Of a stretch of DNA of 48,273 bases, positions 26,120 through 48,273 are shown in pieces. The first letter of the stretch is position 1. Each line of letters starts with the position of its first letter. Both the position numbers and the translations under genes were made by a program. Origin of the DNA: an uncultured Gammaproteobacteria bacterium (lineage in GTDB: Bacteria > Patescibacteriota > Patescibacteriia > Magasanikbacterales > UBA922); the NCBI GenBank assembly GCA_964344965.1, contig CAYFPJ010000007.1:1-48273 (forward strand). Reading direction: 5' to 3'. The notes beneath the pieces are model-generated. The model was not told where the DNA came from, searched no databases, and saw only the letters and a list, made by a program, of their open reading frames with translations.

Positions 26120-26267
26120 TTAAATCTTTAAGCGGTTTTATTCCTCGATGCTTGCATCGAAAAAGTGAAAACTAACATTGGTTGAAATAAGATTTTCTGC
26201 CAATACCCCGCAGCTTGCTGCGGGGATGGCCCGATGAAGTCTTACTTAAACCAAATTTACTTTTATT
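26120..26267 (+). mobile_element. 148-nt MITE-like repeat, copy 1 (inside the FGase-family gene)
   Basis: Base-for-base identical to 29683-29830, 36409-36556 and 43054-43201. Confidence 0.85.
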
Positions 26268-26427
26268 AGTCAAGAAATGTTTTTTGCTCTACTTGCAGAG
26301 CTTCTGTGATCTCTGGATTATCTTTTAAAAATTTTTGCCCATCATCACCATGAAGATTTAATAAAAAATAATCTGCCTTGGTTCTGTTTTCTCCATAATT
26401 TGTGGTGTTTATATATTTTACACTCAT
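26266..26427 (-). pseudogene. N-terminal 53-codon fragment of the interrupted FGase-family gene
   Basis: MSVKYINTTNYGENRTKADYFLLNLHGDDGQKFLKDNPEITEALQVEQKTFLD then TAA, which is contributed at the repeat boundary. Deleting 26123-26267 joins it in frame to LKIEKDVGVTKLVHK... Confidence 0.55.
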
Positions 26428-26537
26428 ATTTATAACACTGATTACACAGATTTAGAAAGGATTGCACGGGCATGAGATGAAGGTGTGTTACTGAGGCAAA
26501 CATCTTGTAGTCTGGCAACGTTCTATATTCTTTTGTT

Positions 26538-26870
26538 CCTGACCCTTTGGCTCTTTGGTTCAGGAGGGGTCATAAAGGTAACTAGACACATGTTGTTATC
26601 TGTCTACTGTTCCTTTCCCCAGCTATTTGTGTCATTCGCCGCTGGGGATGGCAGATTTTTTGAGACGTCACGCCGCCTGCTCCCCGTCCTCTCGGACGAG
26701 GGTCAGAGCGGCGGGCTGCTCGTTGCCAGTCTCCTGGCAACGAGCAGCCTTCATTCGGTCCTGCCACTCACCCCACGTCACCGTGGGGTGGCAGTAGAAG
26801 AACCCCGGCTGGGGGCGCCACGCCCCCTGAGTCTCGTTCATTCCTTCCTCCATGTCAAGGCATATTTGGA
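26538..26870. other. Visibly GC-rich array of adjacent near-perfect hairpins (unidentified structured RNA or foreign remnant)
   Basis: Stems are: cctgacc/ggttcagg; ccccagc/gctgggg; a long imperfect stem at about 26671-26715; a 15-16 bp perfect stem 26715-26729/26734-26748 with loop tctc; ctgcca..ccccacg-tcac-cgtgggg-tggcag (26761-26794); and gggggcg-cca-cgccccc (26811-26827). Confidence 0.5.
26668..26853 (-). CDS. Doubtful 61-aa GC-rich ORF
   Basis: An internal ATG is preceded by ggagg. However, the ORF contains a 34-nt perfect palindrome and other hairpins, and all frames are open in this GC-rich patch. Confidence 0.2.
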   Translation of the reverse strand: MEEGMNETQGAWRPQPGFFYCHPTVTWGEWQDRMKAARCQETGNEQPAALTLVREDGEQAA

Positions 26871-26900
26871 GAGAATTTTTTCTCTACAAACATGCTTTGA

Positions 26901-27009
26901 CAAAAGAAAAAACCTTCGTCATATTGACGAAGGTTTTTTATTAGAAATATTTATTTCAGCGAAAACACAACCTTCGTCGGGAGAGGGGCATCATCATGCT
27001 CATCATCAT
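26901..27009 (-). promoter_or_regulatory. Candidate leader-peptide attenuator A (Met-codon-rich mini-ORF + alternative hairpins + U-run)
   Basis: Mini-ORF 27009->26956 is MMMSMMMPLSRRRLCFR*. gacgaaggtt occurs inside the ORF (26978-26969) and as the terminator 3' arm (26920-26911). Both are complementary to aaccttcgtc (26935-26926). The terminator is followed by ttttcttttg. Confidence 0.4.
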
Positions 27010-27045
27010 GATTGTGTTTAGAATAGAGTTCATAATAGTTGTTAG

Positions 27046-27140
27046 AAATAAAAAACCTTCGCTTGTTTTGCGAAGGCTTTGGAGATTTTTGGTGTTAGTT
27101 AAATCAGGCCTTCGCAAGGGGTCATCATCATGGCCATCAT
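27046..27140 (-). promoter_or_regulatory. Candidate leader-peptide attenuator B (same architecture as A)
   Basis: Mini-ORF 27140->27099 is MMAMMMTPCEGLI*. tgcgaaggc in the ORF (27116-27108) and gcgaagg (27062-27056) both pair with gccttcgca (27077-27069). The terminator is followed by ttttttattt. Confidence 0.4.
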
Positions 27141-27279
27141 GTTGGTAGATTGTGTAGCAATATTTTTCATATTATTTATACCTTACACTGATACCTTCAG
27201 TTTGTCAATGATCAACTGTGGAATATCCAAAAAAGAAAAAATTTGGTATAATCACAATGTTGTTTTTAACATAAAAAAT

Positions 27280-27597
27280 ATGCCTGTTATCGAGGCCTTA
27301 AATTTTATCACCAGCTATGTTGGTTTGATCATCCAATACATTGGACTTTTTATTGTAGCTATTTCTGTGATTATTGGCCTGGCTAAGCTACCGATGAAGG
27401 AGTATACAGTAGATCACGTTCGTAAGCATATGGCTGCCCGAATTATTTTTGGGTTGGAGTTCGTGATTGCGGCTGACATCTTGCTTGCTACTGTAGCTAC
27501 CAGCTATAATGAGATTTTGAGACTGGGAGCTATCGTACTTATTAGAATCATGCTTGGTTATGTCTTGCGCAAAGACATGGCTGAGTTGAAGGGTTAA
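27280..27597 (+). CDS. DUF1622-like small membrane protein
   Basis: MPVIEALNFITSYVGLIIQYIGLFIVAISVIIGL... An extended -10 (tggtataat, 27244-27252) upstream supports this start over ATG 27130. Confidence 0.55.
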   Translation: MPVIEALNFITSYVGLIIQYIGLFIVAISVIIGLAKLPMKEYTVDHVRKHMAARIIFGLEFVIAADILLATVATSYNEILRLGAIVLIRIMLGYVLRKDMAELKG

Positions 27598-27685
27598 GTC
27601 ATTTTTTTGGACAGAACGCTCATATTGACGTCCTGTTTTTATTTTGATATAATTTTTTCGCTCTTAAAAAAGAAGAGTATATAAA

Positions 27686-27759
27686 GGGCCATTAGCTCAG
27701 TTGGCTAGAGCGCCGCCATGGCATGGCGGAGGTCAAGGGTTCAAATCCCTTATGGTCCA
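27686..27759 (+). tRNA. tRNA-Ala (anticodon GGC)
   Basis: Acceptor gggccat/atggtcc with the G3:U70 Ala identity pair, D arm gctc-agttggcta-gagc, anticodon stem ccgcc/ggcgg with loop atGGCat, T arm aaggg-ttcaaat-ccctt. Confidence 0.9.
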
Positions 27760-27765
27760 CATTTT

Positions 27766-27957
27766 GTGTACGAAATTACTAACATTACGCCATGCCTACC
27801 TACCGGCAGGAAAGATACAAAAAAGGCAATTAAGTCGTTAGGATTCCTCCTGAAAGGCGGGTTGACTCCAAACCATGTCTGTTGCGACCGCCTTTCGGCG
27901 GTAATCATAGTCTAGTAGCAACATTTCGTACCTTTCGTACCTTTCGTATTTCGCACA
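27766..27957. repeat. Word-type inverted-repeat element without ORF, between tRNA-Ala and the ABC ATPase gene
   Basis: The left end tgtgtacgaaattac matches the reverse complement of the right end, tgtgcgaaatac. Internal hairpins are gaaaggcgg/ccgcctttc and cctaccggcagg. The right arm carries three ttcgta words. Confidence 0.5.
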
Positions 27958-27963
27958 TCTTTT

Positions 27964-28677
27964 ATGAATGCTCTTGAAATAAACAATTTCACCAAAAAGT
28001 ATGGTGACAATGTCGCTGTAGATAACATCTCTCTCACTGTCAAGCAAGGAGAGTTTTTTGGTTTTTTGGGGAAGAATGGTGCTGGTAAGACGACGACCAT
28101 CAGTGCCGTTACTGGTATTGGTAAGATTACTAGTGGAAATATAAAAGTATTTGGAATTGATGTGGAAAAAAAATATCGAGATGCTCGTCGTAAGATTGGA
28201 TTGTCTCCTCAAGAATTCAACGTAGACATCTGGGCCAAAGTGAGAAATATATTGTGGTATGTTGGTGGATATTATGGTATGAACAAACCTGAAAGAGAAA
28301 AAAGAATTGCAGAATTATTAAAAATTTTTGAACTAGAAGAACATCAGGACAAAGAATTTCGTCAGCTTTCTGGAGGATTGAAAAGGAGATTGATGTTGGC
28401 TCGAGCCATGATGCATGATCCAGATTTATTGATTCTTGACGAGCCTACTGCCGGGGTAGATGTAGAACTTCGTCATGAACTGTGGAAATATCTACGTCGT
28501 ATCAACGAGGAAGGAAAAACTATTTTTTTTACGTCACATTATCTCGAAGAAGTAGAAGAACTTTGTAGTCGTATCGCCATCATTGACGGCGGTAAGATTA
28601 TTGCTGATGCTCCGAAGAGTGAATTTATTCGGGACGGCAGCTCATTAGAAAAGAAATATTTAGAATTGACGAAGTAG
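27964..28677 (+). CDS. ABC transporter ATP-binding protein (ABC-2 exporter type)
   Basis: Walker A GKNGAGKTT, signature LSGGLKRR, Walker B LLILDEP. Confidence 0.9.
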   Translation: MNALEINNFTKKYGDNVAVDNISLTVKQGEFFGFLGKNGAGKTTTISAVTGIGKITSGNIKVFGIDVEKKYRDARRKIGLSPQEFNVDIWAKVRNILWYVGGYYGMNKPEREKRIAELLKIFELEEHQDKEFRQLSGGLKRRLMLARAMMHDPDLLILDEPTAGVDVELRHELWKYLRRINEEGKTIFFTSHYLEEVEELCSRIAIIDGGKIIADAPKSEFIRDGSSLEKKYLELTK

Positions 28678-28801
28678 GGAGATAAGGAGATATTGCTCCA
28701 GCCTTCGGCTGTCGCGAGATAAGAGATAAAAGTAATTACAACGCATTATCTCCCTATCTCCTATCTCTTTTTCCGAAGGAAAAAATTATCTCCTTATCTC
28801 C
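28678..28801. repeat. Nested inverted-repeat element (gagataa words) between the ABC ATPase and permease genes
   Basis: ggagataaggagata (28678-28692) pairs with tatctccttatctcc (28787-28801), 15 bp perfect, with inner imperfect gagataagagataa / ttatctccctatctc. It starts right after the TAG stop. Confidence 0.75.
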
Positions 28802-28841
28802 ATGTAATGATTACTCCATCACAAACTTCCTAAATTTATAT

Positions 28842-29603
28842 ATGAATATAGTCGGCCTCAAAACCCTCATCTACCAAGAAATCCAGCGTTTTTCTCGTGT
28901 GTGGATTCAGTCTTTGGTTAGTCCATGGATCAATGCCCTTCTTTATATCCTTGTCTTTGGTGTGATTGTAGGTTCACGGATTGATCTTATTGCTGGGGTG
29001 ACTTACATTGATTTTGTCTTGCCTGGCATTGTGATGCTCAATTTGATTTCAGCTTCATATATGCAGGGGGCTTTCGGTCTTTATTTCAAGAGATTTGCAC
29101 GCCATATTGAGGAGGTCTTGATAGCTCCTTTTTCTCATTTTGAAATACTAATTTCTTTTGTAGCAGCGGCTGTACTGCGGGGTCTGATTGTCGGGTTTGG
29201 GGTTTACGTCATAGCATTATTTTTTAGTGCAGCGACTATCACTCACCTCTTCTTGTTCTTGTTTTACAGTATTTTGGTCGCGATAATTTTTTCATTTGTT
29301 GGTCTCATTATTGGACTCTGGGCCAATAATTTTGAACAGGTGTCAGTTTTGAACACATTTGTGATTACGCCCCTTACTTTCCTTGGTGGTGTATTCAATT
29401 CCATCACCATGCTGCCAGAGAGTGCCCAGTTTTTTGTTCGTCTCAATCCTTTTTTCTATTTTGTCGACGGCCTGCGCTACTCCATGATCGGAATTAGCGA
29501 GGCCAATGTCTGGGTTGGTCTGGGAATTATTTTTACTTTGATTGTTGTTCTTGGGGGGGTTGTTTGGTATTTGTTTAAGATTGGGTGGAAGATTAGGACG
29601 TAA
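28842..29603 (+). CDS. ABC-2 type transporter permease
   Basis: 253 aa with about 6 TM segments, adjacent to the ATPase. Confidence 0.85.
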   Translation: MNIVGLKTLIYQEIQRFSRVWIQSLVSPWINALLYILVFGVIVGSRIDLIAGVTYIDFVLPGIVMLNLISASYMQGAFGLYFKRFARHIEEVLIAPFSHFEILISFVAAAVLRGLIVGFGVYVIALFFSAATITHLFLFLFYSILVAIIFSFVGLIIGLWANNFEQVSVLNTFVITPLTFLGGVFNSITMLPESAQFFVRLNPFFYFVDGLRYSMIGISEANVWVGLGIIFTLIVVLGGVVWYLFKIGWKIRT

Positions 29604-29682
29604 GAATTTTTAATTTGTAATTTATAATTTTCAAACAATTTTCAATCTTAAAATTAATAAATTTTTTCATTCTAAATTGTTT

Positions 29683-29830
29683 TTAAATCTTTAAGCGGTT
29701 TTATTCCTCGATGCTTGCATCGAAAAAGTGAAAACTAACATTGGTTGAAATAAGATTTTCTGCCAATACCCCGCAGCTTGCTGCGGGGATGGCCCGATGA
29801 AGTCTTACTTAAACCAAATTTACTTTTATT
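29683..29830 (+). mobile_element. 148-nt MITE-like repeat, copy 2
   Basis: Identical to copy 1; intergenic between the permease gene and ychF. Confidence 0.85.
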
Positions 29831-29858
29831 TAAAAATTTCAAATTGTAAATTTTCAAT

Positions 29859-30935
29859 ATGTTATCAATCGGAATAGTCGGTCTCCCAAATGTTGGTAAA
29901 TCCACGCTTTTCAATGCCCTCACCAAGAGTAAGCAAGCAGACGCCCAAAATTATCCTTTTTGTACCATCGAACCAAACGTTGGTGTTGTTGAGGTTCCAG
30001 ATGCAAGGCTGCAAAAGTTGAGTGATATTTCCAAATCAAAAAAAATAATTCCCACTGCCATAGAATTTATCGACATTGCGGGGATAGTCAAAGGTGCATC
30101 AGAGGGTGAAGGTCTTGGTAATAAGTTTCTCTCTCATATTCGTGAATGTGATGCTATTGCTCAAGTGGTGCGTTCTTTTGAAGATGGCAATATTACTCAT
30201 GTCCATAATAAAGTGGATCCCAAAAGTGACGTAGACGTGATCAATCTGGAATTGGTGCTAGCTGATTGGCAGACTGTCTCGAAGAGGCTCGAAAAGGTTG
30301 CTAGGGAAGCAAAGGGTGCAAAGGCTAAGGAGGTGGCTGTGGAGTTGTCTGTTTTAGAAAGATTAAATAAACAATTAGAAAATAGTAAACCAGTTCGTCT
30401 GCTGGAGTTTTCAGAGGATGAAGAATTGATTGTTAGGGATTTGCATCTACTGACTATGAAGCCAATGATGTATATTGTAAACGTCAGTGAACAGGAAACA
30501 GTGAACAGTGAACAGTTGAAACTGGAAGAAGGTGCTGTACATGTCTACATCTCAGCCAAGATTGAGGCAGAAATTGCCGAGTTGCCCGAGGAAGATGCCA
30601 AAGAATTTATGGAGGATCTAGGAATGAGGCAGTCAGGATTGGACAAGATTATCACTGCTGGTTACAAATTGCTTGATTTGGTGACATTTTTCACTTCTGG
30701 AGAGATGGAGACTAGGGCCTGGACTGTGAAGAGTGGGGCGACTGGTCCTGAAGCAGCTGGAGTAATTCACACAGATTTTCTCAAAGGGTATATCAAAGCT
30801 GATGTGGCGAATGTTGGTGATTTTGTTTCTTGTGGTGGATGGAATGGAGTGAAAGAAGCTGGGAGGATGCAATTGGTTGGGAAGGATTACATAGTTCAGG
30901 ATGGGGACGTTTGTTACTTTCATATATCTACATAA
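29859..30935 (+). CDS. ychF: Ribosome-binding ATPase YchF
   Basis: [36 protein letters not shown], and a C-terminal TGS-like region ([12 protein letters not shown]). Confidence 0.92.
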
Positions 30936-31007
30936 GTCGCAAGACTGAGATGTTTGCCTGCCCGCCGAAGCTTTAGCGAAGGTGGGTTACTTCCATACTT
31001 CTACTTA

Positions 31008-31272
31008 GAACATGAAACATTAAACATGGAACAAAAAGCCACCTGTTGTAGGTGGTTTTTGGGCTTTTGCAACTTACTATATCAGAACTCTTGAATAATT
31101 TTGCCAAAATATGCGATAAAATAGTTATTTACTTACCACCAGAATGCAACCAAGAGTTCATTCTTTGAGTACATCATAACACAGCATCTTCATTATACCA
31201 CCCCCACCCAAAAAACAACAAAATTCCTCTATATTCCTCCCTTGTCTCATGTTATATGCTCCATGATCCATG
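31008..31272. repeat. ORF-less relative of the catgga-word IVS-like element
   Basis: The left arm is gaacatgaaacattaaacatggaac. The right arm, catgttatatgctccatgatccatg, closely matches the right arm at 12299-12320 (catgtcatatgctccatgttc). Confidence 0.5.
31038..31062 (+). terminator. Rho-independent terminator downstream of ychF
   Basis: gccacct-gttgt-aggtgg followed by tttttggg. Confidence 0.7.
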
Positions 31273-31291
31273 CCAAATGTCTACACTACTC

Positions 31292-31320
31292 TTGACAAAC
31301 AGCCATTTTTGTGCTATACT
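31292..31320 (+). promoter_or_regulatory. Sigma70 promoter for the DUF5667 gene
   Basis: TTGACA (31292-31297), 17-nt spacer, TATACT (31315-31320). It leaves a ~175-nt leader containing GC-rich hairpins. Confidence 0.6.
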
Positions 31321-31497
31321 AAGGTATGTAATCTTTACCTGTGTTGTTTTCAGGGAGAGATAACGCTTCAAACAAAAAAACCCTCATCAGCCCCAGCCAC
31401 AGGGTGCCTGCCCGCCGATATAGAGGGGTCAGCCTCTGGCTGAAGGTGAGCTGGCAAACAAAAATTCAAAAACAAACATAAACATAAACACAAACAT

Positions 31498-34281: not shown

Positions 34282-34301
34282 ATACACAGAAATCTCTAGA
34301 C

Positions 34302-34363
34302 AAAGGATTCCCGGCGAAAGCCGGGTCAGTACCCACCCGGCTTTCGCCGGGAATCCTTTTTTT
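34302..34363. terminator. 24-bp perfect inverted repeat plus T-run (word-type palindrome acting as terminator)
   Basis: aaaggattcccggcgaaagccggg (34302-34325) pairs with cccggctttcgccgggaatccttt (34336-34359), then tttt. Confidence 0.75.
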
Positions 34364-34432
34364 GAAAGAGTTTTATAATCACAAAAAGTATAGTAAACTA
34401 GTTACTAGTTATCAATTACTAGTTACTTTCAC

Positions 34433-35140: not shown

Positions 35141-35177
35141 GATTGTTAATTTACAATTTTAAATTTTAAATTTTTAA

Positions 35178-35203
35178 ACACCGATCAATGCCGGTGTTTT
35201 TTA
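35178..35203. terminator. Terminator between convergent genes
   Basis: acaccg-atcaatgc-cggtgt followed by tttttt. Confidence 0.7.
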
Positions 35204-35235
35204 TTGTATGTGAGTTTTTTTACTAAAAATCTGTC

Positions 35236-36408: not shown

Positions 36409-36556
36409 TTAAATCTTTAAGCGGTTTTATTCCTCGATGCTTGCATCGAAAAAGTGAAAACTAACATTGGTTGAAATAAGATTTTCTGCCAATACCCCGC
36501 AGCTTGCTGCGGGGATGGCCCGATGAAGTCTTACTTAAACCAAATTTACTTTTATT
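36409..36556 (+). mobile_element. 148-nt MITE-like repeat, copy 3
   Basis: Identical to copy 1. It overlaps the last 22 nt of ORF 36535..36792, including the stop codon. Confidence 0.85.
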
Positions 36557-36792
36557 GGATTTTTGATATTTGTCAATGTGGTGGTGCTATTTTTGTCATC
36601 TAAGTTTTTTTTGACAGCATCATATTTTTTGAAGTCTACCACTTCGTGCCCTATCTCAGATCTCATAAAAATAGTACCTTGTGCCTGCTCAATGGCTGTA
36701 GACGTGGATTGGTAAACAGAGAAAAGGGCAAAAATAGTCAAATTTAAAACGACTATCAAAAAAGTTATCAAAAAAAATCTAACCACTTTCAT
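36535..36792 (-). CDS. Small membrane protein at the distal end of the pilus cluster; C-terminal IKVNLV* encoded by repeat copy 3
   Basis: Start taken at MKVVRFFLITFLIVV (TM segment); the ORF track extends to 36888. Confidence 0.45.
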   Translation of the reverse strand: MKVVRFFLITFLIVVLNLTIFALFSVYQSTSTAIEQAQGTIFMRSEIGHEVVDFKKYDAVKKNLDDKNSTTTLTNIKNPIKVNLV

Positions 36793-36853
36793 CTTAGAAT
36801 AATGTTTGTTTTCAGTCCAAGAAGGGTTTTTTTGGGGCTTGTTTTTTTTGAGG

Positions 36854-37411
36854 TTAATTTGTAGTTTCTGCATAAATATGTCCATCAAACCTAAGGGTAA
36901 TTGATGTATCTTCTTCTAAACTACCCGATCTTTTTTCCCACTGTAGATTAGATATGTTTATATAGTAGGGTAGTCTTTCCATTTCATATAAGAAATTCAT
37001 ATGATTTTCAAAGGTGCCATGGTTTAAAAAGGAAAAAGTATAGTCAACACCATCACTATTTGGTAGTTGTATGTTAGTTGAGTTGGCATGTAGGGTTTGT
37101 GTTATTGAATATTTTTTTGCTAGACCTTCTAATTCTATAATGACAGATAATTCTTGACCTGGCGTGATGAAAGACTTTTTTATATTATCTATTTCTTTTT
37201 CTATTGCGCTTAGTTCATTTAGAGTACGTTTCATCTGTCGGGTTTTTTGGTAGTCTATTTCCATTGACTTATGAATACTTGTGATTTCTTTTTGGAGTGC
37301 CTCTATTTTTTTCAAGGTCGGTAATATAATTGTAATCAAGATCAAAACAATTAACAGGAAAATTCCAGCGTTTTTTATTATTAATTGAGTGTTTACAGAA
37401 AATCTTTTCAT
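36854..37411 (-). CDS. pilO: PilO-like type IV pilus assembly protein
   Basis: N-terminal TM, coiled-coil, 185 aa, positioned after pilM-pilN. Confidence 0.5.
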   Translation of the reverse strand: MKRFSVNTQLIIKNAGIFLLIVLILITIILPTLKKIEALQKEITSIHKSMEIDYQKTRQMKRTLNELSAIEKEIDNIKKSFITPGQELSVIIELEGLAKKYSITQTLHANSTNIQLPNSDGVDYTFSFLNHGTFENHMNFLYEMERLPYYINISNLQWEKRSGSLEEDTSITLRFDGHIYAETTN

Positions 37412-37955: not shown

Positions 37956-37962
37956 ACTTAGT

Positions 37963-40169: not shown

Positions 40170-40187
40170 ATATTTAGATAACCTAAT

Positions 40188-40304
40188 AAATCCAAAACAA
40201 CAACAAATCACAAATCCAAAACAGATTTCAATTATCAAACTCCAAATATACAAACATCTATATTTATTAGTTGATAATTGGGGCTTGTTTTGGTACTGGT
40301 GTTG
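40188..40304 (-). other. Long nested hairpin in the pilB-pilC spacer
   Basis: aaatccaaaacaaca (40188-40202) pairs with tgttgttttggattt (40290-40304). The inner pair is caattatcaa / ttgataattg. Confidence 0.5.
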
Positions 40305-40315
40305 TTTTGGATTTA

Positions 40316-42037
40316 CTATTCTCGAGTAACTCTCAAAACTTCTTCGATAGTAGTGATACCTTGTTTTGCTTTTATTATTCCATCTTGAAGCATGGTCATC
40401 ATTCCTTGTGTCTCGGCCTGTTTTGATATTTCTTGAGCGTTGGCATTGTTGTTTATCTTAGCAGACATTTCTTTGTCTATCTCTAGTACTTCATAGATTC
40501 CGACACGTCCTTTGTAGCCTGTCTCATTGCAAGTGCGACAGCCTGCTCCGCGATAGAAAATCATAGTTCCTACGTTTTTCTCTTTTGGGAGAATGGCAAC
40601 TTTATTTTTTTCAAGTAGCGGTATTATTTTTTTTATACCATTCATCTTTTCTAATTGGGAGACAGCTTTTTTTTCTAGTGTGTATTCTTGTTTGCATTTC
40701 TCACATATTTTTCTTACTAGGCGTTGGGCGACTATTACGTTGGCAGTGAAAGCAACCAAAAAAGGTGGAATTTCCATGTCTATAAGACGGGGTAGAGTGG
40801 TTGGAGCATCATTTGTATGGAGGGTTGACAAAACAAGGTGGCCGGTCATGCTAGCATGGATTGCTATTTCGGCTGTATCCTTGTCGCGGATTTCTCCTAC
40901 CATGATGATGTCTGGATCTTGGCGTAAGAATGCTTTTAGACCTCCCGCAAAATTGAATCCCACCCTTGCATTGACTTGACTTTGGTTGATGCCTTTGACG
41001 TGATATTCGATCGGATCTTCAATGGTACAAATATTTACATCTGGTTGGTTCAGTATTCCAAGCAGAGAGTAGAGGGTTGTGGTTTTACCAGATCCGGTCG
41101 GTCCAGTGACCAGCACCATTCCATGTGGTTTCTCTATGGCTGCCTCTAATTTATTCCTTGGGCCTGGTAAAAATCCAAGATCATCAAGTGACAAAGGTTT
41201 TTGACCTTCTTGCAAGAGGCGCATTACTATTTTTTCACCATCGTAGACTGGCATGATGGAAACACGGAAAGATACTTTATCTTGATGTAATTTGATCTTA
41301 AATCGTCCGTCTTGGGGCACCATGTGTTCGTCTATCTTTAAGTTGGCTAGTATTTTTATTCTGGCAATGATCCCTCTTTGGACATTTTTTGGGAGATTCA
41401 TCATATTGCGCAGTATCCCATCCACTCTGTATCGGACAGTTATTTCTTTTTCGACTGGTTCAATATGAATATCACTGGCTCCTTGATAGACTGCATGTTC
41501 GAGAATGCTTTTTACAATATTTATGATTGGTAGTTCTTCTGCTACCTTTTTCAAATCTGTGCTATTGGATTTTTGTTTGGACTCAATACTCTTGAATGTA
41601 TCTTCTAGACTGGTGTGGTACAAGCGCAGTGCTTTTTTTATTACTGAGGGTTTTGATAAAAATATTTTGGGGGTAAGGCCGGTTTTTCTTCTGATGAATT
41701 CGACTGTTTGGATATCTAGGGGGTCACCCATGGCTAGATGAATTTGGTTGTCTGTTTTTTTGAAGGCAATAATTTGGTGAGTCTCTGCCAAGGGTTGAGG
41801 AATCAATTCATATACTTCTTTGGGGATGTCTTGGGTGTGTATATCCGTTAGCGGTACTTCCATTTCTTTGGCAGCCCAGGTATAAAGAGTTGCTTCCTCA
41901 ATTATTTCTTCGTCTAGCAGATATTGTTCAAGTTCTTTCTCATTTTGTTGAGCTTTTTTGCCAAGAGATTCTTGGTTCTTGACTGATAGGTTGGCAAATT
42001 CTGTCAGATATTTGATCAAAATATTTTTTGGGAGCAT
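40316..42037 (-). CDS. pilB: Type IV pilus assembly ATPase PilB (GspE family)
   Basis: 573 aa with T2SSE N-domain, Walker A GPTGSGKTT, Asp/His boxes, and the tetracysteine motif CEKC..CRTC. Confidence 0.92.
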   Translation of the reverse strand: MLPKNILIKYLTEFANLSVKNQESLGKKAQQNEKELEQYLLDEEIIEEATLYTWAAKEMEVPLTDIHTQDIPKEVYELIPQPLAETHQIIAFKKTDNQIHLAMGDPLDIQTVEFIRRKTGLTPKIFLSKPSVIKKALRLYHTSLEDTFKSIESKQKSNSTDLKKVAEELPIINIVKSILEHAVYQGASDIHIEPVEKEITVRYRVDGILRNMMNLPKNVQRGIIARIKILANLKIDEHMVPQDGRFKIKLHQDKVSFRVSIMPVYDGEKIVMRLLQEGQKPLSLDDLGFLPGPRNKLEAAIEKPHGMVLVTGPTGSGKTTTLYSLLGILNQPDVNICTIEDPIEYHVKGINQSQVNARVGFNFAGGLKAFLRQDPDIIMVGEIRDKDTAEIAIHASMTGHLVLSTLHTNDAPTTLPRLIDMEIPPFLVAFTANVIVAQRLVRKICEKCKQEYTLEKKAVSQLEKMNGIKKIIPLLEKNKVAILPKEKNVGTMIFYRGAGCRTCNETGYKGRVGIYEVLEIDKEMSAKINNNANAQEISKQAETQGMMTMLQDGIIKAKQGITTIEEVLRVTRE

Positions 42038-42394
42038 ATAGTTTCTGATTTTTTGTATGCATTCATAATATCATATTTTGTTCTAGTTTGACAGTTTTTT
42101 TGTCTGGTGTTAACATTAATTTGGGAGTTTTATGGCTCTATATTTTTTTACAATTTTTTAAATTTGCTAATGATACAGATTGATTTTTATGACTATCTGA
42201 ACGGAGCTATTTTTTTGCTGTGAAATTCGTCTCAAGAATAATTTACTTCAGACAAAAAAATTGATTTATATCATTCGTACATCAATAATTTATGAAAAAA
42301 ATTTTATTTCTCCAAACCAGAACAAACAAAAGTCTAGAGCACGAGAGAGTGTGTTAGACGTCTGTGGCCAGAGTATGTTGATGATATTCAGTTT

Positions 42395-43039
42395 GTGAAT
42401 TTGCTCAATGATGAAGTGGTGCCAGATTTGGACAATGTCAGAGCGATAATTATGGGTGGTAGCGGTGAGGTTCATCTGAATGAGGATCACTCCAGAGAAA
42501 CTTGGTTTTTGGTGGCTAGCAATCTCATGAACGAAGTAATCAAAAGGGAGATCCCTATGCTTGGAATTTGTTTTGGTTTTCAATTCATTGCTCTCCATCA
42601 AGGTGCCAAGGTTGTACTAAGAGAAGGTTGTGATGAGGTGGGGTCATTTGCAATTACCAATTTTCCTGCTGCCAAGGAGGATCCTTTATTCAAAAATTTG
42701 CCAGATACATATATAGTCCAAGAAGGTCACAATTTGGTAGTGGAAGATTTGCCAGATCATTTAGAATTGTTAGCCAGATCAGAGAGAGTGCCAATTCAGG
42801 CTTTCAAGATGAAGGGTAAGCCAGTCTGGGGCGTGTTATTTCATGTGGAGCTCGATAAGAGAGGGACTGAGGAGAGGGTGAATTTGTATGATGATGACGA
42901 TTATGACTATACAGGAGGGGTCGGGCCTGGCAGTGACCTGCTTAAGGAATCTCCTGAGGCGAACAAATTGTTGGGTGATTTTTTGGAGTATGCTTTTCGT
43001 CAGGAGGAGATCTTGGCTGGTCAGAAGAGTAATGTGTAA
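42395..43039 (+). CDS. Class I glutamine amidotransferase-like protein; the 5' end appears frameshifted (N-terminal piece starts at 42292)
   Basis: Nucleophile elbow MLGICFGFQ and FHVE. MKKILFLQTRTNKSLEHER is in another frame upstream and looks like the true N-terminus. Confidence 0.75.
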   Translation: MNLLNDEVVPDLDNVRAIIMGGSGEVHLNEDHSRETWFLVASNLMNEVIKREIPMLGICFGFQFIALHQGAKVVLREGCDEVGSFAITNFPAAKEDPLFKNLPDTYIVQEGHNLVVEDLPDHLELLARSERVPIQAFKMKGKPVWGVLFHVELDKRGTEERVNLYDDDDYDYTGGVGPGSDLLKESPEANKLLGDFLEYAFRQEEILAGQKSNV

Positions 43040-43053
43040 AATAAAATTATTTT

Positions 43054-43201
43054 TTAAATCTTTAAGCGGTTTTATTCCTCGATGCTTGCATCGAAAAAGT
43101 GAAAACTAACATTGGTTGAAATAAGATTTTCTGCCAATACCCCGCAGCTTGCTGCGGGGATGGCCCGATGAAGTCTTACTTAAACCAAATTTACTTTTAT
43201 T
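43054..43201 (+). mobile_element. 148-nt MITE-like repeat, copy 4
   Basis: Identical to copy 1; lies 15 nt after the GATase stop. Confidence 0.85.
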
Positions 43202-43286
43202 AAGCTAGATATTTTGTTCTAGCTTATTTGATTTAAGTTTCAAATTATTATAATATATGAGAGTTATAATATAATTTTATCTAATT

Positions 43287-45164
43287 ATGGGAAAAAATGA
43301 AGTGGGCACATCTGGTTACAAACCGGTGGAAAATCCTGACCTTATCCCAGCAATACGTAGAGATTTTAATCTTGATGAAGAGGCTCGATTAGATGGCTTA
43401 CGAAAATTGTTGGAAATTGATTCTGATCTCTTGGCTGACAGGCACGAAAATCCTGCTACAGAAGTGTTTTTTTCTGGTTTTTCACTTGATGAGGAGGAGT
43501 TGGCAAAAATTGACGGGATAGAACATTATGAGACTAGGACATTGTATAAGATAGGTCAATTGGCCAAGGATCCCAATCTGAGATTGGTCATCGTGACCAG
43601 AAAGATACCAGATCAGAGAATTATTGATTTTTACTTGAATAGATTTGTTGATGAAAGTAGTAATGATATTAGTCTGGAAGATGTAAAGGAAAGACTTACT
43701 TTTATAGAAGCCAAAGAGAAAACTTTAAAACTAGATATAGGTGCTCCAGCAGGTGACCTTGGAGCGGAACCAAAAACAGTGGTGCATAGTACTGGAAAAA
43801 GGATAGACAGTACTACTAAAATTGCTGTTAGTAATGAAGCAACACTTTTCGATATTAGACAAGAGTTGAACAAGACAGGGGGTCGAGGTGTGATCCGTTG
43901 TTTTAATAGCAGTCCTCATGAGGTGGAAGCAGCATTGAAACTTGATGTGCCTCTCTATGCTCCAGATGCAAAAACAGTCAAAGAAGTGAACGGAAAATCG
44001 CATGGTCGAGTATTTTTTCGAGAAGCTGGAGTACCTTTGGCAGAAGGTAGAGAATATATCCGTACTCATCAAGAGATGTTTAAGACATTGTTTATTCTGG
44101 CCGAAAAAGGACATCGATCTGCTGTAATAAAATTAGAAGATAGTTTTTCTGGAGAAGGTAATTTGAAGATTGATTTAGCAAAGATGAAGAAAGAATTTCT
44201 TTTGGATCAAAAGGAAGGAGAGGGAATGAAGTTTAGTGTTGATGGAGCATTGGCCGTAGGTAAAACAGAGGATTTATTGGAAATTTTGAGTAGAGTTGTA
44301 ACCCAGCATCCAAAGGGTGTAGAACCTGGGGTAATCTTGGAAAAGTTTGCAGAAATTGGTGGTATTGTGGAGGCCTGGGTCAGCACACCCGAAGATGAAG
44401 AGCCAAGAGAGAGAAGGGGGAGAAAAACAAGCCCTAGTGTACAGATGGAAATTTTACCTGGCAGTGGTGATGATAAGATAAAAATTATCTCTTCTCATGA
44501 ACAGATTTTGGATGGGCAAACATATCAAGGGGCTTCTTTCCCAGCCGAACGTAATTATATCGGCAGTATTGTCAGTGCCGCCAAAAAAGCGGGAAAGAAA
44601 TTACAAGAGGCTGGTGTACTGGGACGAGTGGCAGCTGATTTTATAGTTACTTTTCAGGAAGAAAAAAATGATTGGGAAGGTGAAGAAATATGGCAAATTG
44701 ATAGTCGCACTGTCGAAGTGTATGGGGTAGAATTCAATATTCGTAAAGGTGGGACTACTCACCCTTATGAAGTAACCAAATTACTTACTGATGGAAAAAG
44801 AGATAAGGATGGTAAATTGAAAGACAGGCATGGAAGAGAAATATTTTATATAGCTACAGATAATATTAAGAAAGAAAGATTGAAAGGTGTGGATATAGGA
44901 AAGTTTTTAGAATTTTTGGATAGTACTGGATTGCTTTTTGATGAAGAAACAAACCAAGGTATCATGCCGCATCTAATGTCAGCAATACCAGAATATGGAA
45001 AGTTTGGCTTCACTGCCATAGCTCATTCTCATGAAGAAGCTAGGATTATATATGATAATTTTATGTATAAGGTAAACACAAAGTGGGAGGATAGGAGAGG
45101 AAAGGGGCAGGACGGAGTAAGAGAACCTGATAAAAGAAAAAGAAGAACTAGGACAAAGAAGTAG
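43287..45164 (+). CDS. ATP-grasp-type ligase-like protein (resembles PGM1-type peptide ligases) with a basic C-terminal tail
   Basis: 625 aa. EFNIRKGGTTHPY and the overall layout recall pre-ATP-grasp + ATP-grasp ligases. This assignment is from memory and is weak. Confidence 0.4.
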   Translation: MGKNEVGTSGYKPVENPDLIPAIRRDFNLDEEARLDGLRKLLEIDSDLLADRHENPATEVFFSGFSLDEEELAKIDGIEHYETRTLYKIGQLAKDPNLRLVIVTRKIPDQRIIDFYLNRFVDESSNDISLEDVKERLTFIEAKEKTLKLDIGAPAGDLGAEPKTVVHSTGKRIDSTTKIAVSNEATLFDIRQELNKTGGRGVIRCFNSSPHEVEAALKLDVPLYAPDAKTVKEVNGKSHGRVFFREAGVPLAEGREYIRTHQEMFKTLFILAEKGHRSAVIKLEDSFSGEGNLKIDLAKMKKEFLLDQKEGEGMKFSVDGALAVGKTEDLLEILSRVVTQHPKGVEPGVILEKFAEIGGIVEAWVSTPEDEEPRERRGRKTSPSVQMEILPGSGDDKIKIISSHEQILDGQTYQGASFPAERNYIGSIVSAAKKAGKKLQEAGVLGRVAADFIVTFQEEKNDWEGEEIWQIDSRTVEVYGVEFNIRKGGTTHPYEVTKLLTDGKRDKDGKLKDRHGREIFYIATDNIKKERLKGVDIGKFLEFLDSTGLLFDEETNQGIMPHLMSAIPEYGKFGFTAIAHSHEEARIIYDNFMYKVNTKWEDRRGKGQDGVREPDKRKRRTRTKK

Positions 45165-45195
45165 TAGTAGACAGAGAAGGGGTAGTTTTCAAAAA

Positions 45196-45221
45196 ACCAA
45201 TGTATCAACATTGGTTTTTTG
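45196..45221 (+). terminator. Rho-independent terminator
   Basis: accaatgt-atca-acattggt followed by tttttg. Confidence 0.75.
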
Positions 45222-45280
45222 TTCCAAAATATCCTCAAAATAAACCAATCCTTTATTCCAACCATATTTTTGGCTCTATA

Positions 45281-45309
45281 TTGACAAATTTTTCATCACC
45301 TGATATATT
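45281..45309 (+). promoter_or_regulatory. Sigma70 promoter upstream of the rpsF operon leader
   Basis: TTGACA (45281-45286), 17-nt spacer, TATATT (45304-45309). Confidence 0.6.
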
Positions 45310-45588
45310 ACTCAAGCTCTAAAATGAGTTTATCAGCGCAACTTTACCAGCTTACAGGTCGATCGTAAGCGTGGAGGATGGTAAATAGATAACAAACCCA
45401 AACACAGGCGAAACACTTTTTTTCTTATAATCAAGGGTATTAATCCCAGGGTAATTCCTGGACCGACCTTTCTGAGACAGGTCTAGGTGAATTAGGCAGA
45501 TCTCTTGTCCCGTACCGAGGGACGAGGTCGGGATTAAAGAAAAAATAGCTAAGTATTTGCTAGTCTGTGGTAGACAAATTAAATAATT
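45310..45588 (+). promoter_or_regulatory. Long (~280 nt) structured 5' leader of rpsF-ssb-rpsR
   Basis: Several local stems: gcttac/gtaagc, ttacc/ggtaa, ccagg/cctgg, ccgacct/aggtcgg enclosing gtccc/gggac. No ORF. Confidence 0.4.
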
Positions 45589-46227
45589 ATGAAAAATTAC
45601 GAATTACTTTGTATTCTGCCTGGGACAATGACTGAAGAAGAAGTCATGAGTCAGGTGGAAGAAGCAAAAAAATTAATCGAAGAAAAAGGTGGGACAAATA
45701 TAGTTCACCAAGATAAAGGCAAGAGCCGTCTTGCTTATCCAATCCGCCACATCCGTTATGGATACTTCCACCTTATCCAGTTCGAAGCTGAGACAAGCGT
45801 GATTGATCCACTTAGAAAAGTATTGAACCTCAACCGTGAATTGCTCCGCTCAATTATCACTGCCTATGATCCAGTGCGTCGTGCAGAGAGGGACAAGCAA
45901 TTCACAGGTAGAATAAAGACAATTTCTACTTTTTCGAGTATTCATGATCGTCCAGCCCAGCCAACCAGAATAGAAGATGGGGGTGCTACAGGCATGAAGA
46001 ATATTCCGGCAGCACCTGTCAAGTCGGCAGCAAAACCAGCACCTGTTGAAAAAGCCAAAGAGACAAAAGAAGACGAAATCGCAAGTAATGTGGAAGACGA
46101 AGAGAAGACTGCGGAAGTTGAAGACATGGAGGAACTGAAATCAGAAGAAAAGAAAGAGGAAATTAAGATTGATGATATTGATAAGAAGTTGGATGAACTT
46201 CTGGAAAAAGATTTAGATAAAATTTAA
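45589..46227 (+). CDS. rpsF: 30S ribosomal protein S6 with ~100-aa K/E-rich C-terminal extension
   Basis: MKNYELLCILPG...SRLAYPIRHIRYGYFHLIQFEA, with rpsF-ssb-rpsR synteny. Confidence 0.88.
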   Translation: MKNYELLCILPGTMTEEEVMSQVEEAKKLIEEKGGTNIVHQDKGKSRLAYPIRHIRYGYFHLIQFEAETSVIDPLRKVLNLNRELLRSIITAYDPVRRAERDKQFTGRIKTISTFSSIHDRPAQPTRIEDGGATGMKNIPAAPVKSAAKPAPVEKAKETKEDEIASNVEDEEKTAEVEDMEELKSEEKKEEIKIDDIDKKLDELLEKDLDKI

Positions 46228-46253
46228 TTACTTTTATTTGCCAAACTCCCCTC

Positions 46254-46330
46254 AATTCTTTTTACTTTTTTGATGAACCAAAATCAGATAGTCGCAGACT
46301 GTTGGTTTCATAAAAAAAGTAAAAAGAATT
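46254..46330 (+). other. 77-nt AT-rich hairpin in the rpsF-ssb spacer
   Basis: aattctttttactttttt (46254-46271) pairs with aaaaaagtaaaaagaatt (46313-46330), 18 bp perfect, extended by gatgaaccaa / ttggtttcat. Confidence 0.6.
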
Positions 46331-46385
46331 GATATTTGGGAGCTTGAACAATTTAAAGTAATAGTTATTCTTAAACTTATCTTCT

Positions 46386-46826
46386 ATGGATCTCAATCGA
46401 GCTACCATACTAGGTAGATTGACACGCGACCCAGAAGTCCGTACTACAACTACGGGCAAGACTGTGGCCAGCATGGCAGTCGCCACCAATAGAGTATGGA
46501 CCAATCAATCTGGCGAAAAACAAGAATTTGTCGAATACCATGACTGTGTGTTGTGGGGCAAGATCGGTGAAATCGCCGGACAATACCTAAGTAAAGGTAG
46601 ACGAGTTTATCTAGAGGGGAGATTACAAACCCGCGATTGGGTAGGCAATGATGGTGTGAAAAGATATCGCACTGAGATCATCGTCGACAATATGATTATG
46701 CTCGATGGTCCTCGTAATTCCGGGGCACCTGCCCAAGGTCAGAGTTCTACTAGTGATGATACTCCCCCACCTCCAACAGATGATGCCGGAGCAGGAGAGA
46801 TCAAAGTGGAAGATATTCCATTCTAA
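46386..46826 (+). CDS. ssb: Single-stranded DNA-binding protein
   Basis: OB-fold N-terminus (NRATILGRLTRDPEVRTT..) and an acidic tail ending DIPF. Confidence 0.92.
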   Translation: MDLNRATILGRLTRDPEVRTTTTGKTVASMAVATNRVWTNQSGEKQEFVEYHDCVLWGKIGEIAGQYLSKGRRVYLEGRLQTRDWVGNDGVKRYRTEIIVDNMIMLDGPRNSGAPAQGQSSTSDDTPPPPTDDAGAGEIKVEDIPF

Positions 46827-46831
46827 TTTAT

Positions 46832-47059
46832 ATGCCGCATAAAAAGAATCAAAAAACTGATAAACAATGCTATTTCTGTCTGAATAACATTGTGGAGATC
46901 GACTACAAGGATGTGCAAACTCTTCGTCGTTTTGTCTCTTCATATATGAAGATCGCACCACGAAGAAGAAGTGGTCTATGTGCTGGTCATCAACGCAAAG
47001 TTGCTCGCGCTATCAAGCAATCTCGTATTGCTGGGTTGATGGCTTTTGTGCCGAAGTAA
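46832..47059 (+). CDS. rpsR: 30S ribosomal protein S18
   Basis: CYFC....IDYKDVQTLRRFVS...I.PRRRSGLCAGHQRKVARAIKQSRIAGLM. Confidence 0.92.
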   Translation: MPHKKNQKTDKQCYFCLNNIVEIDYKDVQTLRRFVSSYMKIAPRRRSGLCAGHQRKVARAIKQSRIAGLMAFVPK

Positions 47060-47067
47060 TTGGTCCA

Positions 47068-47114
47068 CAGACTACCTGCCTGCCGGCAGGCACGGCGGTA
47101 GACAGACTACAGAC
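47068..47114. repeat. GC-rich palindrome with flanking cagactac direct repeats
   Basis: tgcctgccggcaggca (47077-47092) is a 16-nt perfect palindrome. cagactac occurs at 47068 and 47103. Confidence 0.6.
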
Positions 47115-47127
47115 TTAAAAAATAAAA

Positions 47128-47155
47128 AACTCTCCATATTTGGAGAGTTTTTTGT
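47128..47155 (+). terminator. Rho-independent terminator after rpsR
   Basis: aactctcc-atattt-ggagagtt followed by ttttg. Confidence 0.75.
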
Positions 47156-47201
47156 ATTCCTTCATTTCAAATACAGTTTTGTATATGTATGAGAAATTGT
47201 T

Positions 47202-47275
47202 ATCCTGAGCGCAGCGAAGGATCTTTCTTGTGGAGGATATCTTCCTTGCTAAAGATCCTTCGCTGCGCTCAGGAT
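47202..47275. repeat. 25-bp perfect inverted repeat (word-type palindrome)
   Basis: atcctgagcgcagcgaaggatcttt (47202-47226) pairs with aaagatccttcgctgcgctcaggat (47251-47275). Confidence 0.8.
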
Positions 47276-47309
47276 GACAGGGTTAAAAACATTCTATAAT
47301 ATTTTATTA

Positions 47310-47603
47310 TCAGATATTCAAAAAAACTATTATCACAATTTGCACTGCCAAAATTACAGCCACTCCAGCCTGAAAAGACATTTTTTTAGTCTTGTGCCGG
47401 AAAAAGGACATGCCAACAAGGGCACCGACTGATCCGCCAACTAGTGCCAGTACCCAGAGAGTCTTCTCACTCACTCTTCTTTTTTGGAGCTGAGATTTCA
47501 TCTTATCTATTCCAAAATAAAAAAAAGTAATCAAATTTATCAATAGTAAGTAGATGACAGCAATCTGCCAAAATAATGTGAGATTGGCGAACCAAGTGAG
47601 CAT
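47310..47603 (-). CDS. DUF1294 family membrane protein
   Basis: FYFGIDKMKSQLQKRRVSEKTLWVLALVGGSVGALVGMSFFRHKTKK matches the DUF1294 core. Confidence 0.65.
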   Translation of the reverse strand: MLTWFANLTLFWQIAVIYLLLINLITFFYFGIDKMKSQLQKRRVSEKTLWVLALVGGSVGALVGMSFFRHKTKKMSFQAGVAVILAVQIVIIVFLNI

Positions 47604-47605
47604 AG

Positions 47606-48157
47606 TTATTCGTTTATGGCGGTATTCATGTGGTATTTGCGATCTTCATCTGCAAAGTGTATTAGGTCTTCTCGCACTTTGTTTGGCTCTGAAACATTTT
47701 TGAAAATAATATCTGTGTTGATCGATGCTGTCTTGATGTGAATTCTTCCATAATTGAAAATAGTAGAGAAGAACCCCCTCATTTCTACAGTGACGTCCTG
47801 GATTCTGAACAAATCTAATTCTGTAGTGGTTCTAGAAAATAGACCATGCTGTTCGATATCTATTATTCTGTCATTGGTCACTATCCATACATCTAGGTAG
47901 TAGTCTAAGAAACGAACATAAAAGAATAAGTACATGCTAAGCATATAAGTACTACCAATCAAGACTGAAATCGGATAAGCAAGAGGTCCTTGGAAAAATG
48001 TTGGGAAAAGATTTTCAACCAAAAAATAAAGTGCTACCGGCACCAAGAATAAAACCAAAGACAGAAAAATAATCGGAATAAAAGTAATTGGGTGTCTTCG
48101 TAGACGATAGATTACCTTTTCGTATGATTTTTGTTTGATGAGTTCTGCGAGATGCAT
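47606..48157 (-). CDS. Membrane protein with bacterial PH (YdbT/DUF304-like) domain
   Basis: Two N-terminal TM segments, then ...DRIIDIEQHGLFSRTTTELDLFRIQDVTVEM.. Confidence 0.5.
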   Translation of the reverse strand: MHLAELIKQKSYEKVIYRLRRHPITFIPIIFLSLVLFLVPVALYFLVENLFPTFFQGPLAYPISVLIGSTYMLSMYLFFYVRFLDYYLDVWIVTNDRIIDIEQHGLFSRTTTELDLFRIQDVTVEMRGFFSTIFNYGRIHIKTASINTDIIFKNVSEPNKVREDLIHFADEDRKYHMNTAINE

Positions 48158-48231
48158 AGGAGCACTAATTTTAACACCAATTTACACGAATATTTTTTTG
48201 GAATTAAGATAAATTTTGTTCAATGACTTGA

Positions 48232-48273
48232 AATAAAAGTAAATTTGGTTTAAGTAAGACTTCATCGGGCCAT
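48232..48273 (-). mobile_element. 148-nt MITE-like repeat, copy 5 (inverted, truncated by the window edge)
   Basis: aataaaagtaaatttggtttaagtaagacttcatcgggccat is the exact reverse complement of the last 42 nt of the other copies. Confidence 0.8.

Follow-up and report, generated by a model that had tools for sequence, protein, structure and literature searches.

Gene-less derivatives of IS200/IS605 insertion sequences, known as PATEs (palindrome-associated transposable elements), have been reported from Haloquadratum walsbyi (PMC3119063) and from Geobacillus stearothermophilus (PMC10055086). These elements lack coding capacity, retain only subterminal hairpin ends, occur in several copies, insert 3' of a fixed 5-nt motif without duplicating it, and are presumed to be moved in trans by the transposase TnpA. 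The gene-carrying elements IS608 and ISDra2 likewise have hairpin ends and complementary 4-nt guides, with a top-strand target that lies 5' of the left end, and they duplicate no host DNA (PMC5027513, PMC3597680). In IS608, the four bases immediately 5' of each hairpin foot are those that pair with the cleavage motif (AAAG and TTAC; PMC5027513, PMC3597680), and at the ends of elements of this family the left linker, of ~15–19 nt, is longer than the right one, of ~8 nt (PMC3597680). The present report concerns a short repeat found in a 48,273-nt contig (CAYFPJ010000007.1 of assembly GCA_964344965.1; the whole of this stretch is hereafter called the window) from an uncultured bacterium placed by GTDB in the order Magasanikbacterales of the Patescibacteria, or candidate phyla radiation. 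Each copy of the repeat is very probably a 142-nt, non-autonomous IS200/IS605 derivative of the PATE type, moved in trans by a TnpA encoded outside the contig.

From its sequence, the element appears to retain only two subterminal DNA hairpins and their 4-nt guides. It shares with PATEs the lack of coding capacity, the occurrence in several copies, the insertion 3' of a fixed 5-nt motif without duplication and the presumed movement in trans by TnpA, and with IS608 and ISDra2 the guides complementary to their cleavage motifs and the position of the target; its left linker of 18 nt is very close to the 19 nt of IS608. There are also differences. Unlike the PATEs described so far, the element resides in a candidate-phyla-radiation bacterium, shows no sign of an omega RNA, and ends at the right in an AATA-guided hairpin that forms the left end of autonomous relatives; moreover, a long extended stem carries that hairpin, and 36 nt separate the core hairpin from the end motif. 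Unlike IS608 and ISDra2, it has neither tnpA nor tnpB, its target is TTAAA, and its right linker is longer, while a perfect 8-bp hairpin with a CTTG loop takes the place of the imperfect palindrome of IS608. Elements of this kind, and the way in which they move, have been described before.

Copies and exact boundaries of the element

An earlier note on this DNA, made from the sequence alone, had reported a 148-nt block in four complete, identical copies on the + strand (26120-26267, 29683-29830, 36409-36556 and 43054-43201) and a fifth, inverted copy running off the end of the window. Repeat searching and alignment bear this out: the four complete blocks are 100% identical, with identity stopping sharply at the left and right edges, and the fifth (48232-48273) is 42 nt long, 100% identical and truncated by the window end. 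No weaker or decayed copies were found elsewhere in the 48-kb window by the repeat search. The varied contexts that had been described are also real, with one gene split (copy 1), the 3' end and stop codon of another replaced (copy 3), and two intergenic insertions, one of which places the block 28 nt upstream of ychF (copy 2) and the other 14 nt past the stop codon of a glutamine amidotransferase gene (copy 4). The copies occur in either sense relative to neighboring genes. The 142-nt element itself has no coding capacity, and the open reading frames (ORFs) that cross it are read-ins from flanking genes only.

The extent of the mobile unit was determined from the two broken genes, whose homologs are uninterrupted in other genomes. 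Around copy 1, every plausible stretch near the block was deleted in turn, and the product was translated and scored against homologous proteins. The N-terminal 53 codons of this gene lie at 26269-26427 and its C-terminal part, composed of a 236-codon ORF plus an open stretch, at 25380-26117. Removal of 142 nt (block positions 6–147) fuses the two ORFs into a single protein of 301 amino acids, and the restored junction, FLD-YLK-IEKDVG, aligns without gaps with QKYLNLEADIG of homolog P0028 and IQYCKLERDFG of homolog P0029, such that the regained Y-L-K faces Y-L-N and Y-C-K, respectively. Among all of the registers tried, this excision gave the top alignment score with both homologs (581 and 375); the register 26126-26267 (block positions 7–148) is equivalent to 26125-26266, given the T on both sides. 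By comparison, removal of the whole 148-nt block leaves a TAA stop at the junction, and models with a TT or TTA duplication, in which 146 nt are removed, leave the gene out of frame.

A similar result was obtained with copy 3, which provides the last six codons and the stop codon of a 117-amino-acid gene in a pilus operon. When 142 nt are removed, the terminus KNP-IKVNLV-stop becomes KNPFNVASPKGDLTTADPE-stop and the residues NPFN are regained. The motif [DN]PF occurs at this position in 34 of 35 homologs, the nearest of which reads DPFNMV, whereas the F or the FN disappears if 145 or 148 nt are taken out. Because the excision results at two independent genes agree, the mobile unit is 142 nt rather than 148, inserted without duplication, and the TTAAA and final T of the block are host DNA. 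In keeping with this, the flanks of the blocks share no repeat outside of the block and no target-site duplication was seen. All four complete copies lie 3' of TTAAA (here always TTAAA^T), and the true ends of the element are TCTTTAAG... at the left and ...ACTTTTAT at the right. The T that follows copy 1 (26267) and the T beside copy 5 (48232) are host DNA or ambiguous. Positions of the copies, the broken genes and the structural features are collected in Table 1.

Table 1. Copies of the 142-nt element, the genes they interrupt, and the structural features of the element as numbered in copy 1.
Feature	Position	Strand	Remarks
Copy 1, 142-nt element	26125..26266	+	Interior of ~300-aa gene on - strand
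Copy 2, 142-nt element	29688..29829	+	Between ABC-2 permease gene (end 29603) and ychF (start 29859); 100% identical
Copy 3, 142-nt element	36414..36555	+	3' part of 117-aa pilus-operon gene
Copy 4, 142-nt element	43059..43200	+	Glutamine amidotransferase gene before, ATP-grasp gene downstream
Copy 5 (inverted)	48233..48273	-	Final 41 nt of element only; contig ends there
Gene broken by copy 1	25380..26427	-	Homologs P0028 (309 aa) and P0029 (303 aa) span both parts
Pilus-operon gene cut by copy 3	36535-36888	-	117 aa; C-terminus replaced by the copy
TTAAA target motif, host DNA	26120..26124, 29683-29687, 36409-36413, 43054-43058	+	Precedes every complete copy
Guide TATT, left end	26139..26142	+	Abuts the 8-nt arm of hairpin 1 on its 5' side; rule predicts TAAA
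Hairpin 1, left end, CCTCGATG-CTTG-CATCGAAA	26143..26162	+	From folds
Extended imperfect hairpin, putative right end (TTGGTT...AACCAA)	26178..26254	+	From DNA and RNA folds
Guide AATA, putative right end	26202..26205	+	Directly 5' of hairpin 2; rule predicts TTAT, the final four bases of the element
Hairpin 2, CCCCGCAG-CTTG-CTGCGGGG	26206..26225	+	Exact 20-mer common in public sequence
Transposon-end motif TTTAT	26262..26266	+	Last 5 nt of element; boundary from gene restoration

Hairpins, guides and the predicted route of movement

Both of the CTTG-loop hairpins reported for the block are present and perfect: TCGATG/CATCGA, and CCCCGCAG/CTGCGGGG, which stands on a longer, imperfect stem. The block folds far more stably than shuffled sequences, with z-scores of -5.4 (+ strand) and -6.0 (- strand). 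In hairpin 1 six pairs are formed (26145-26160) and two foot pairs have been lost, so that it is a hairpin of the CCCCGATG-CTTG-CATCGGGG type minus its foot. In the extended hairpin, the guide occupies an internal loop and hairpin 2 sits at the tip.

A rule relating guides to motifs was read from public loci, whereby a guide g1g2g3g4 specifies the motif comp(g2) comp(g1) comp(g3) comp(g4). The predicted motif was found 4–5 nt after the hairpin in 59 of 120 listed loci, compared to a mean of 26 and a maximum of 37 with permuted guides. Taken guide by guide, GATA was followed by TCAT in 42 of 46 loci, GATG by TCAC in four of six and AATG by TTAC in four of five, and GATT with TCAA was also seen. 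The rule moreover fits CATG with TGAC at the right ends of two methanogen IS200 elements (L198 and L134, described below) and reproduces the AAAG/TTAC pair of IS608. For AATA-guided hairpins, TTTAT was found 11–19 nt from the foot in 73 of 103 listed cases, as against six of 97 control windows. In the window element, TATT pairs in this manner with T-TAAA of the target and AATA with T-TTAT at the element's end. The guides and the gene-restoration boundaries are independent lines of evidence, and their agreement supports the ends as assigned.

With these parts in hand, the movement of the element can be pictured as 'peel and paste' transposition. A Y1 (HUH) transposase TnpA, encoded elsewhere in the genome, would bind both hairpins as a dimer on the single-stranded top strand. 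Guide TATT would pair with TTAAA at the left and guide AATA with TTTAT at the right, TnpA would cut after each of these motifs, and the top strand would leave as a single-stranded circle with the predicted junction ...ACTTTTAT/TCTTTAAGCGG... (the slash marking the join). The circle would then be inserted 3' of another TTAAA, with no duplication of the target. For copies 1–4, the + strand is regarded as the top strand because its CTTG loop has the sense seen on the tnpA-sense strand of autonomous copies and because the conserved target lies to the 5' side. A matching TnpA presumably exists in this genome, hairpin 2 on its extended stem would serve as the right end, and movement was probably recent, as judged from the identity of all copies. 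Excision of IS200/IS605 elements is precise, and for this reason both the split gene and the clipped pilus gene should be reversible.

Several observations weigh against this reading. The 48-kb contig, which is the sole part of the genome that was searched, has no TnpA gene: as the earlier note had stated, the window contains no transposase, TnpB or integrase, according to Pfam and NCBIfam scans of its ~45 ORFs and tblastn with seven TnpA sequences, and it encodes no IscB either. The proteins on which the gene restorations depend are distant, the closest homologs being only 31–54% identical. At the right end, TTTAT lies 36 nt 3' of the foot of the core hairpin (40 nt to the cut) or, counted from the foot of the extended hairpin, 8 nt away (12 nt to the cut), compared to 4–5 nt after the foot, and a linker of 8–9 nt, at the right ends of relatives; altered spacing is tolerated, and downstream boundaries are captured, in published work on this family (PMC10055086). 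The stretch 3' of hairpin 2 looks like the interior of the left end in autonomous copies, not like a canonical right end, hairpin 1 is without its two foot pairs, and the identity of the copies means that there is no covariation within the element family. Finally, the family prefers a top strand on the lagging-strand template (PMC5027513), and four of the five copies have their top strand on the + strand, which, in the right replichore, serves as template for the lagging strand; this argument was dropped, however, since TTAAAT sites themselves number 17 on the + strand and eight on the - strand.

The unusual right end may mean that the element is a rearranged product, given the likeness of the AATA hairpin, and of the ~25 nt that follow, to the left-end region of autonomous copies. 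In a bolder version of this idea, the right end is a left-end-type AATA hairpin, identical over 27–38 nt to left ends in Methanothrix and Methanosarcina, that has been re-used with a downstream TTTAT to create an 'inside-out' mini-element, and the base-for-base sharing of the hairpin by methanogenic archaea and candidate-phyla-radiation bacteria could reflect recent transfer of an IS200 lineage across domains, possibly between an episymbiont and its host. This fuller scenario is unlikely.

Relatives and competing explanations

The 20-nt hairpin 2 was found in at least 120 metagenome contigs, and the whole 148-nt block was carried by none of those listed. In most of the listed cases, TTCAT or TTTAC follows 4–5 nt downstream of the hairpin and the sequences then diverge, a pattern that has the look of a mobile-element end. 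At eight metagenome loci, among the matches listed, a protein of ~150 amino acids ends 2–100 nt upstream of the hairpin, and the two that were scanned belong to Pfam family Y1_Tnp (PF01797; E = 4e-32 and 5e-39). The other end of these tnpA elements has a sister hairpin with compensatory changes in the stem and the CTTG loop kept. No TnpB was seen among the upstream ORFs at the hairpin 2 metagenome loci, the others being ordinary genes only.

At least 96 stretches of representative genomes contain a longer match, the 27-nt AATA-hairpin-ATG; they come mostly from Methanosarcina and Methanothrix, with further hosts among the Ignavibacteria, Anaerolineales, Dehalococcoidia and Thermoplasmata and in two candidate-phyla-radiation genomes. 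In 31 of 103 listed genome occurrences, tnpA starts less than 250 nt downstream. Overall, a Y1 transposase gene lies beside the same 20–27-nt hairpin at about 40 listed public loci, mostly in Methanosarcinales. For example, a tandem pair at one locus (L198) delimits a complete, TnpA-only IS200 with a 591-nt period: TTTAT is followed by TTTTAATG and the AATA hairpin at the left, then by tnpA, and the right end consists of an extended stem, CATG, the same hairpin, the closing stem and AACTTGAC. In a TnpA-encoding IS200 of Methanothrix (L134), hairpin 2 forms the left end and CCCCGATG-CTTG-CATCGGGG, the hairpin-1 type, the right end. In addition to the identical 27 nt, ~25 nt on the 3' side can be aligned between these elements and that of the window, and a few methanogen loci match it over 37–39 nt at 90–95% identity. 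The right ends of L198 and L134, with an extended stem, a guide in an internal loop and a core hairpin, are built as in the window element. The Methanothrix and Methanosarcina copies differ from it in encoding TnpA, in using the AATA hairpin as a left end with TTTAT 12–19 nt upstream, in their right motif (TTGAC) and in their archaeal hosts. At several methanogen loci, a TTTAT 37–38 nt after the hairpin was considered as a right end and rejected, as conservation continues into tnpA; this TTTAT belongs to the left-end interior and is perhaps a TATA box. It was also observed that AATA-hairpin-ATG is identical to the base in archaea and several bacterial phyla (L124-L219), which could reflect either one IS200 lineage that has spread horizontally or strong constraint by TnpA.

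The left end of the window element has homologs of its own. Hairpins with the same decayed foot form left ends at L023, L103 and L018, and the arrangement of TTAAA, 10–17 nt, TATT and a hairpin recurs at L018 (two copies with different flanks), L022, L034, L041, L067 and L106. The left end, TTAAA followed by TCTTTAAGCGGTTTTATT and the hairpin, aligns with TTAAA, TCTCTCCGGGTAATATT and the hairpin of tnpA-less elements at L018 (two copies), L067, L106 and L041, with the L034 row not counted. The small metagenome elements at L018, L067, L007 and L106 combine this homologous left end (TTAAA, ~17 nt, TATT and the decayed-foot hairpin) with a second hairpin, of identical 20-nt core, 30–45 nt later, as in the window element, and they too lack tnpA. 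They differ in having a canonical right end, GATA-core-AGGTTCAT, with a 4–5 nt linker and the end motif TTCAT, and in their length of ~105 nt.

Similar gene-less elements were encountered in unrelated settings. In Candidatus Doudnabacteria RIFCSPHIGHO2_01_48_18, at least 20 near-identical, tnpA-less copies of ~113 nt bear the same hairpin and always lie between TTTAT and T, the element running from TTTAT through CCAGCACCTTCCAGAATA, the hairpin and ATGAATGG to GGTGCTGGATTTAT and the T (L137, L140, L145, L150, L153, L155, L167, L170, L174, L181, L188, L195 and L197); one of these loci, L174, has three copies at a spacing of 620 nt. No tnpA was seen near these copies within the fetched flanks. 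A homologous, gene-less, two-hairpin element is present on plasmid pPSLF89-1 of Piscirickettsia salmonis (L122, 1400-1590) and in 35 other P. salmonis plasmid records, where TTCAA is followed by TCGCTGTGGGTCTGATT-CCCCGCAG-CTTG-CTTCGAAA, then by AAATA-CCCCATAG-CTTG-CTGCGGGG-AT and, at the end, AAATTTATT. It is situated between hypothetical genes, and the plasmid record has no annotation for it. Judging from the Doudnabacteria and Piscirickettsia sequences, such mini-elements are widespread. Apart from the Piscirickettsia element, BLAST against plasmids and phages gave short hairpin matches only, and a 28-mer of the window element's left end had no matches in viral contigs. The exact 26-mer formed by hairpin 2 and ATGGCC had no matches in 185,579 representative genomes, so the species and its exact element are not among them. 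A literature search for the hairpin sequence returned no match, and a search for work linking Patescibacteria to IS200-derived mini-elements found no paper in the library covered.

How else might the repeat be explained? The block had been described as a MITE-like element (miniature inverted-repeat transposable element) with imperfect terminal inverted repeats and no transposase in view. That it is mobile, non-autonomous and non-coding still stands; what does not is the MITE anatomy. A classical MITE, a deletion derivative of an insertion sequence with a DDE transposase that moves by cut-and-paste between terminal inverted repeats and leaves a short target duplication, would likewise be small, non-coding and present in multiple identical copies in varied contexts, and TAAATCTTTAAG does match, weakly, in inverted orientation and with a gap, an internal site close to the right end. 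On inspection, however, most of the proposed left arm (TAAAT...) belongs to the target, the right arm is set 8 nt inward and can be matched only across a 3-nt gap, and both arms stay unpaired in minimum-energy folds. The duplication models fail at copy 1 as described above, and only a 142-nt excision that leaves TTAAAT gives the best homolog match there and restores PFN at copy 3. A classical MITE is therefore highly improbable. The element does resemble classical MITEs and Rickettsia palindromic elements in being short, structured, multi-copy and able to sit in genes, but unlike them it has neither terminal inverted repeats nor a target duplication. Moreover, 142 is not a multiple of three, and so the insert breaks the reading frame, unlike elements that are read through.

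The two hairpins also invite comparison with palindromes of the REP/BIME kind, domesticated and kept by a single-copy RAYT in place of an IS200 TnpA. REPs resemble the end hairpins of IS200/IS605 and are acted on by Y1 enzymes (PMC3333891), the window shows no tnpA, and the same hairpin occurs singly downstream of many ordinary metagenome genes. REPs, however, are extragenic palindromes of ~20–40 nt, often in pairs and tied to a single RAYT gene, whereas this is a 142-nt unit with two distinct ends, guide/motif pairs and a defined TTAAA target that enters coding sequence and breaks genes, and its closest relatives are the ends of multi-copy IS200 elements with an ordinary TnpA; an origin of this sort is quite improbable. 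Identity of the copies had alternatively been attributed to very recent spread or to constraint on an RNA product. Recent spread is the part that survives, since the hairpins correspond to the DNA hairpins bound by Y1 transposases of IS200/IS605 and are not a feature of an RNA product. That the block is chiefly a gene for a structured small RNA, be it an omega RNA carried in a PATE or a regulatory RNA, with identity selected on the RNA, is very improbable: the fold is very stable on both strands and PATEs often carry omega RNAs (PMC10055086), but copy 2 and its borders showed no promoter- or terminator-like site, the related IS200 elements have TnpA alone and neither TnpB nor IscB, and the copies, which lie in either sense to their neighbors and break genes, cease to be identical exactly at the transposition boundaries. 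Nor does any Rfam 15 family match the block, either at the gathering score or at E-values up to 10 (the best match on the element scored 18 bits, E = 4.2, and only three tRNAs in the window reached the gathering score), a result that leaves the mobile reading intact. Finally, a single repeat consensus pasted into several assembly gaps is scarcely credible as the source of the copies. A short-read consensus could inflate identity, and the same stretch, assembled independently with k=127 (L001), starts and stops inside copies 2 and 3, that is, within the repeat at both ends, as is expected of a multi-copy element. From unique DNA on either side, that assembly nevertheless runs 120–123 nt into the repeat, and the unique flanks of each copy join seamlessly into gene sequence that can be restored to the base.

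Genomic setting and significance

The window is a piece of bacterial chromosome with ~39% G+C, and its genes include a type IV pilus cluster (pilB, pilC and pilM), ychF, rpsF and ssb. A large DUF5667 protein has its best relatives, at no more than 46% identity, among sequences labelled Patescibacteria or Candidatus Magasanikbacteria. The genes dnaN (4499-5623, - strand), dnaA (5880-7259, - strand) and rnpA (7948-8331, + strand) occur together, and the GC skew is positive from about 5 kb; the chromosomal replication origin is probably near 7.3–7.9 kb, 18–40 kb from the five copies of the element. The packing of identical copies into 22 kb, after 26 kb without any, suggests a burst that was both recent and local.

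Other features of the window were noted in passing. A G+C-rich island at 26560-26945 (52–65%, versus about 38% around it) consists of a chain of long, perfect hairpins, with fold z-scores of -13.9 on the + strand and -12.1 on the - strand and a two-way, terminator-like hairpin at 26909-26940. In Rfam, the island gives terminator-driven 'leader' matches only; a 178-amino-acid ORF across it is odd in composition and matches no family. The island may represent a structured RNA not described before or a further palindromic element. Beside a tRNA-Arg gene, adjacent genes for a RelB antitoxin and a YafQ/ParE-like toxin (23649-24195) constitute a type II toxin-antitoxin pair. Degenerate tandem repeats of 9, 12 and 21 nt at 16277-16523 encode an acidic stretch rich in Glu, Ala and Met, which lies in the N-terminal half of a YceI-domain protein (16220-16996). 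Finally, the gene for ribosomal protein S6 (45589-46227) encodes 212 amino acids, of which only residues 1–92 are the S6 domain, leaving a long C-terminal extension.

The boundaries of the element were fixed to the base without an empty site, from protein homology alone, and a word of caution follows for 148-nt 'MITE-like' blocks of this kind, which may contain target bases. The guide-to-motif rule held over more than 200 public loci and could aid in the annotation of such elements. For the organism, the most probable interpretation is that a mini-element of a single-strand transposon family has become established in a small, reduced candidate-phyla-radiation genome, where it appears to have multiplied recently within 22 kb beside the replication origin, splitting one conserved gene and clipping a protein of a type IV pilus operon at its conserved C-terminus.

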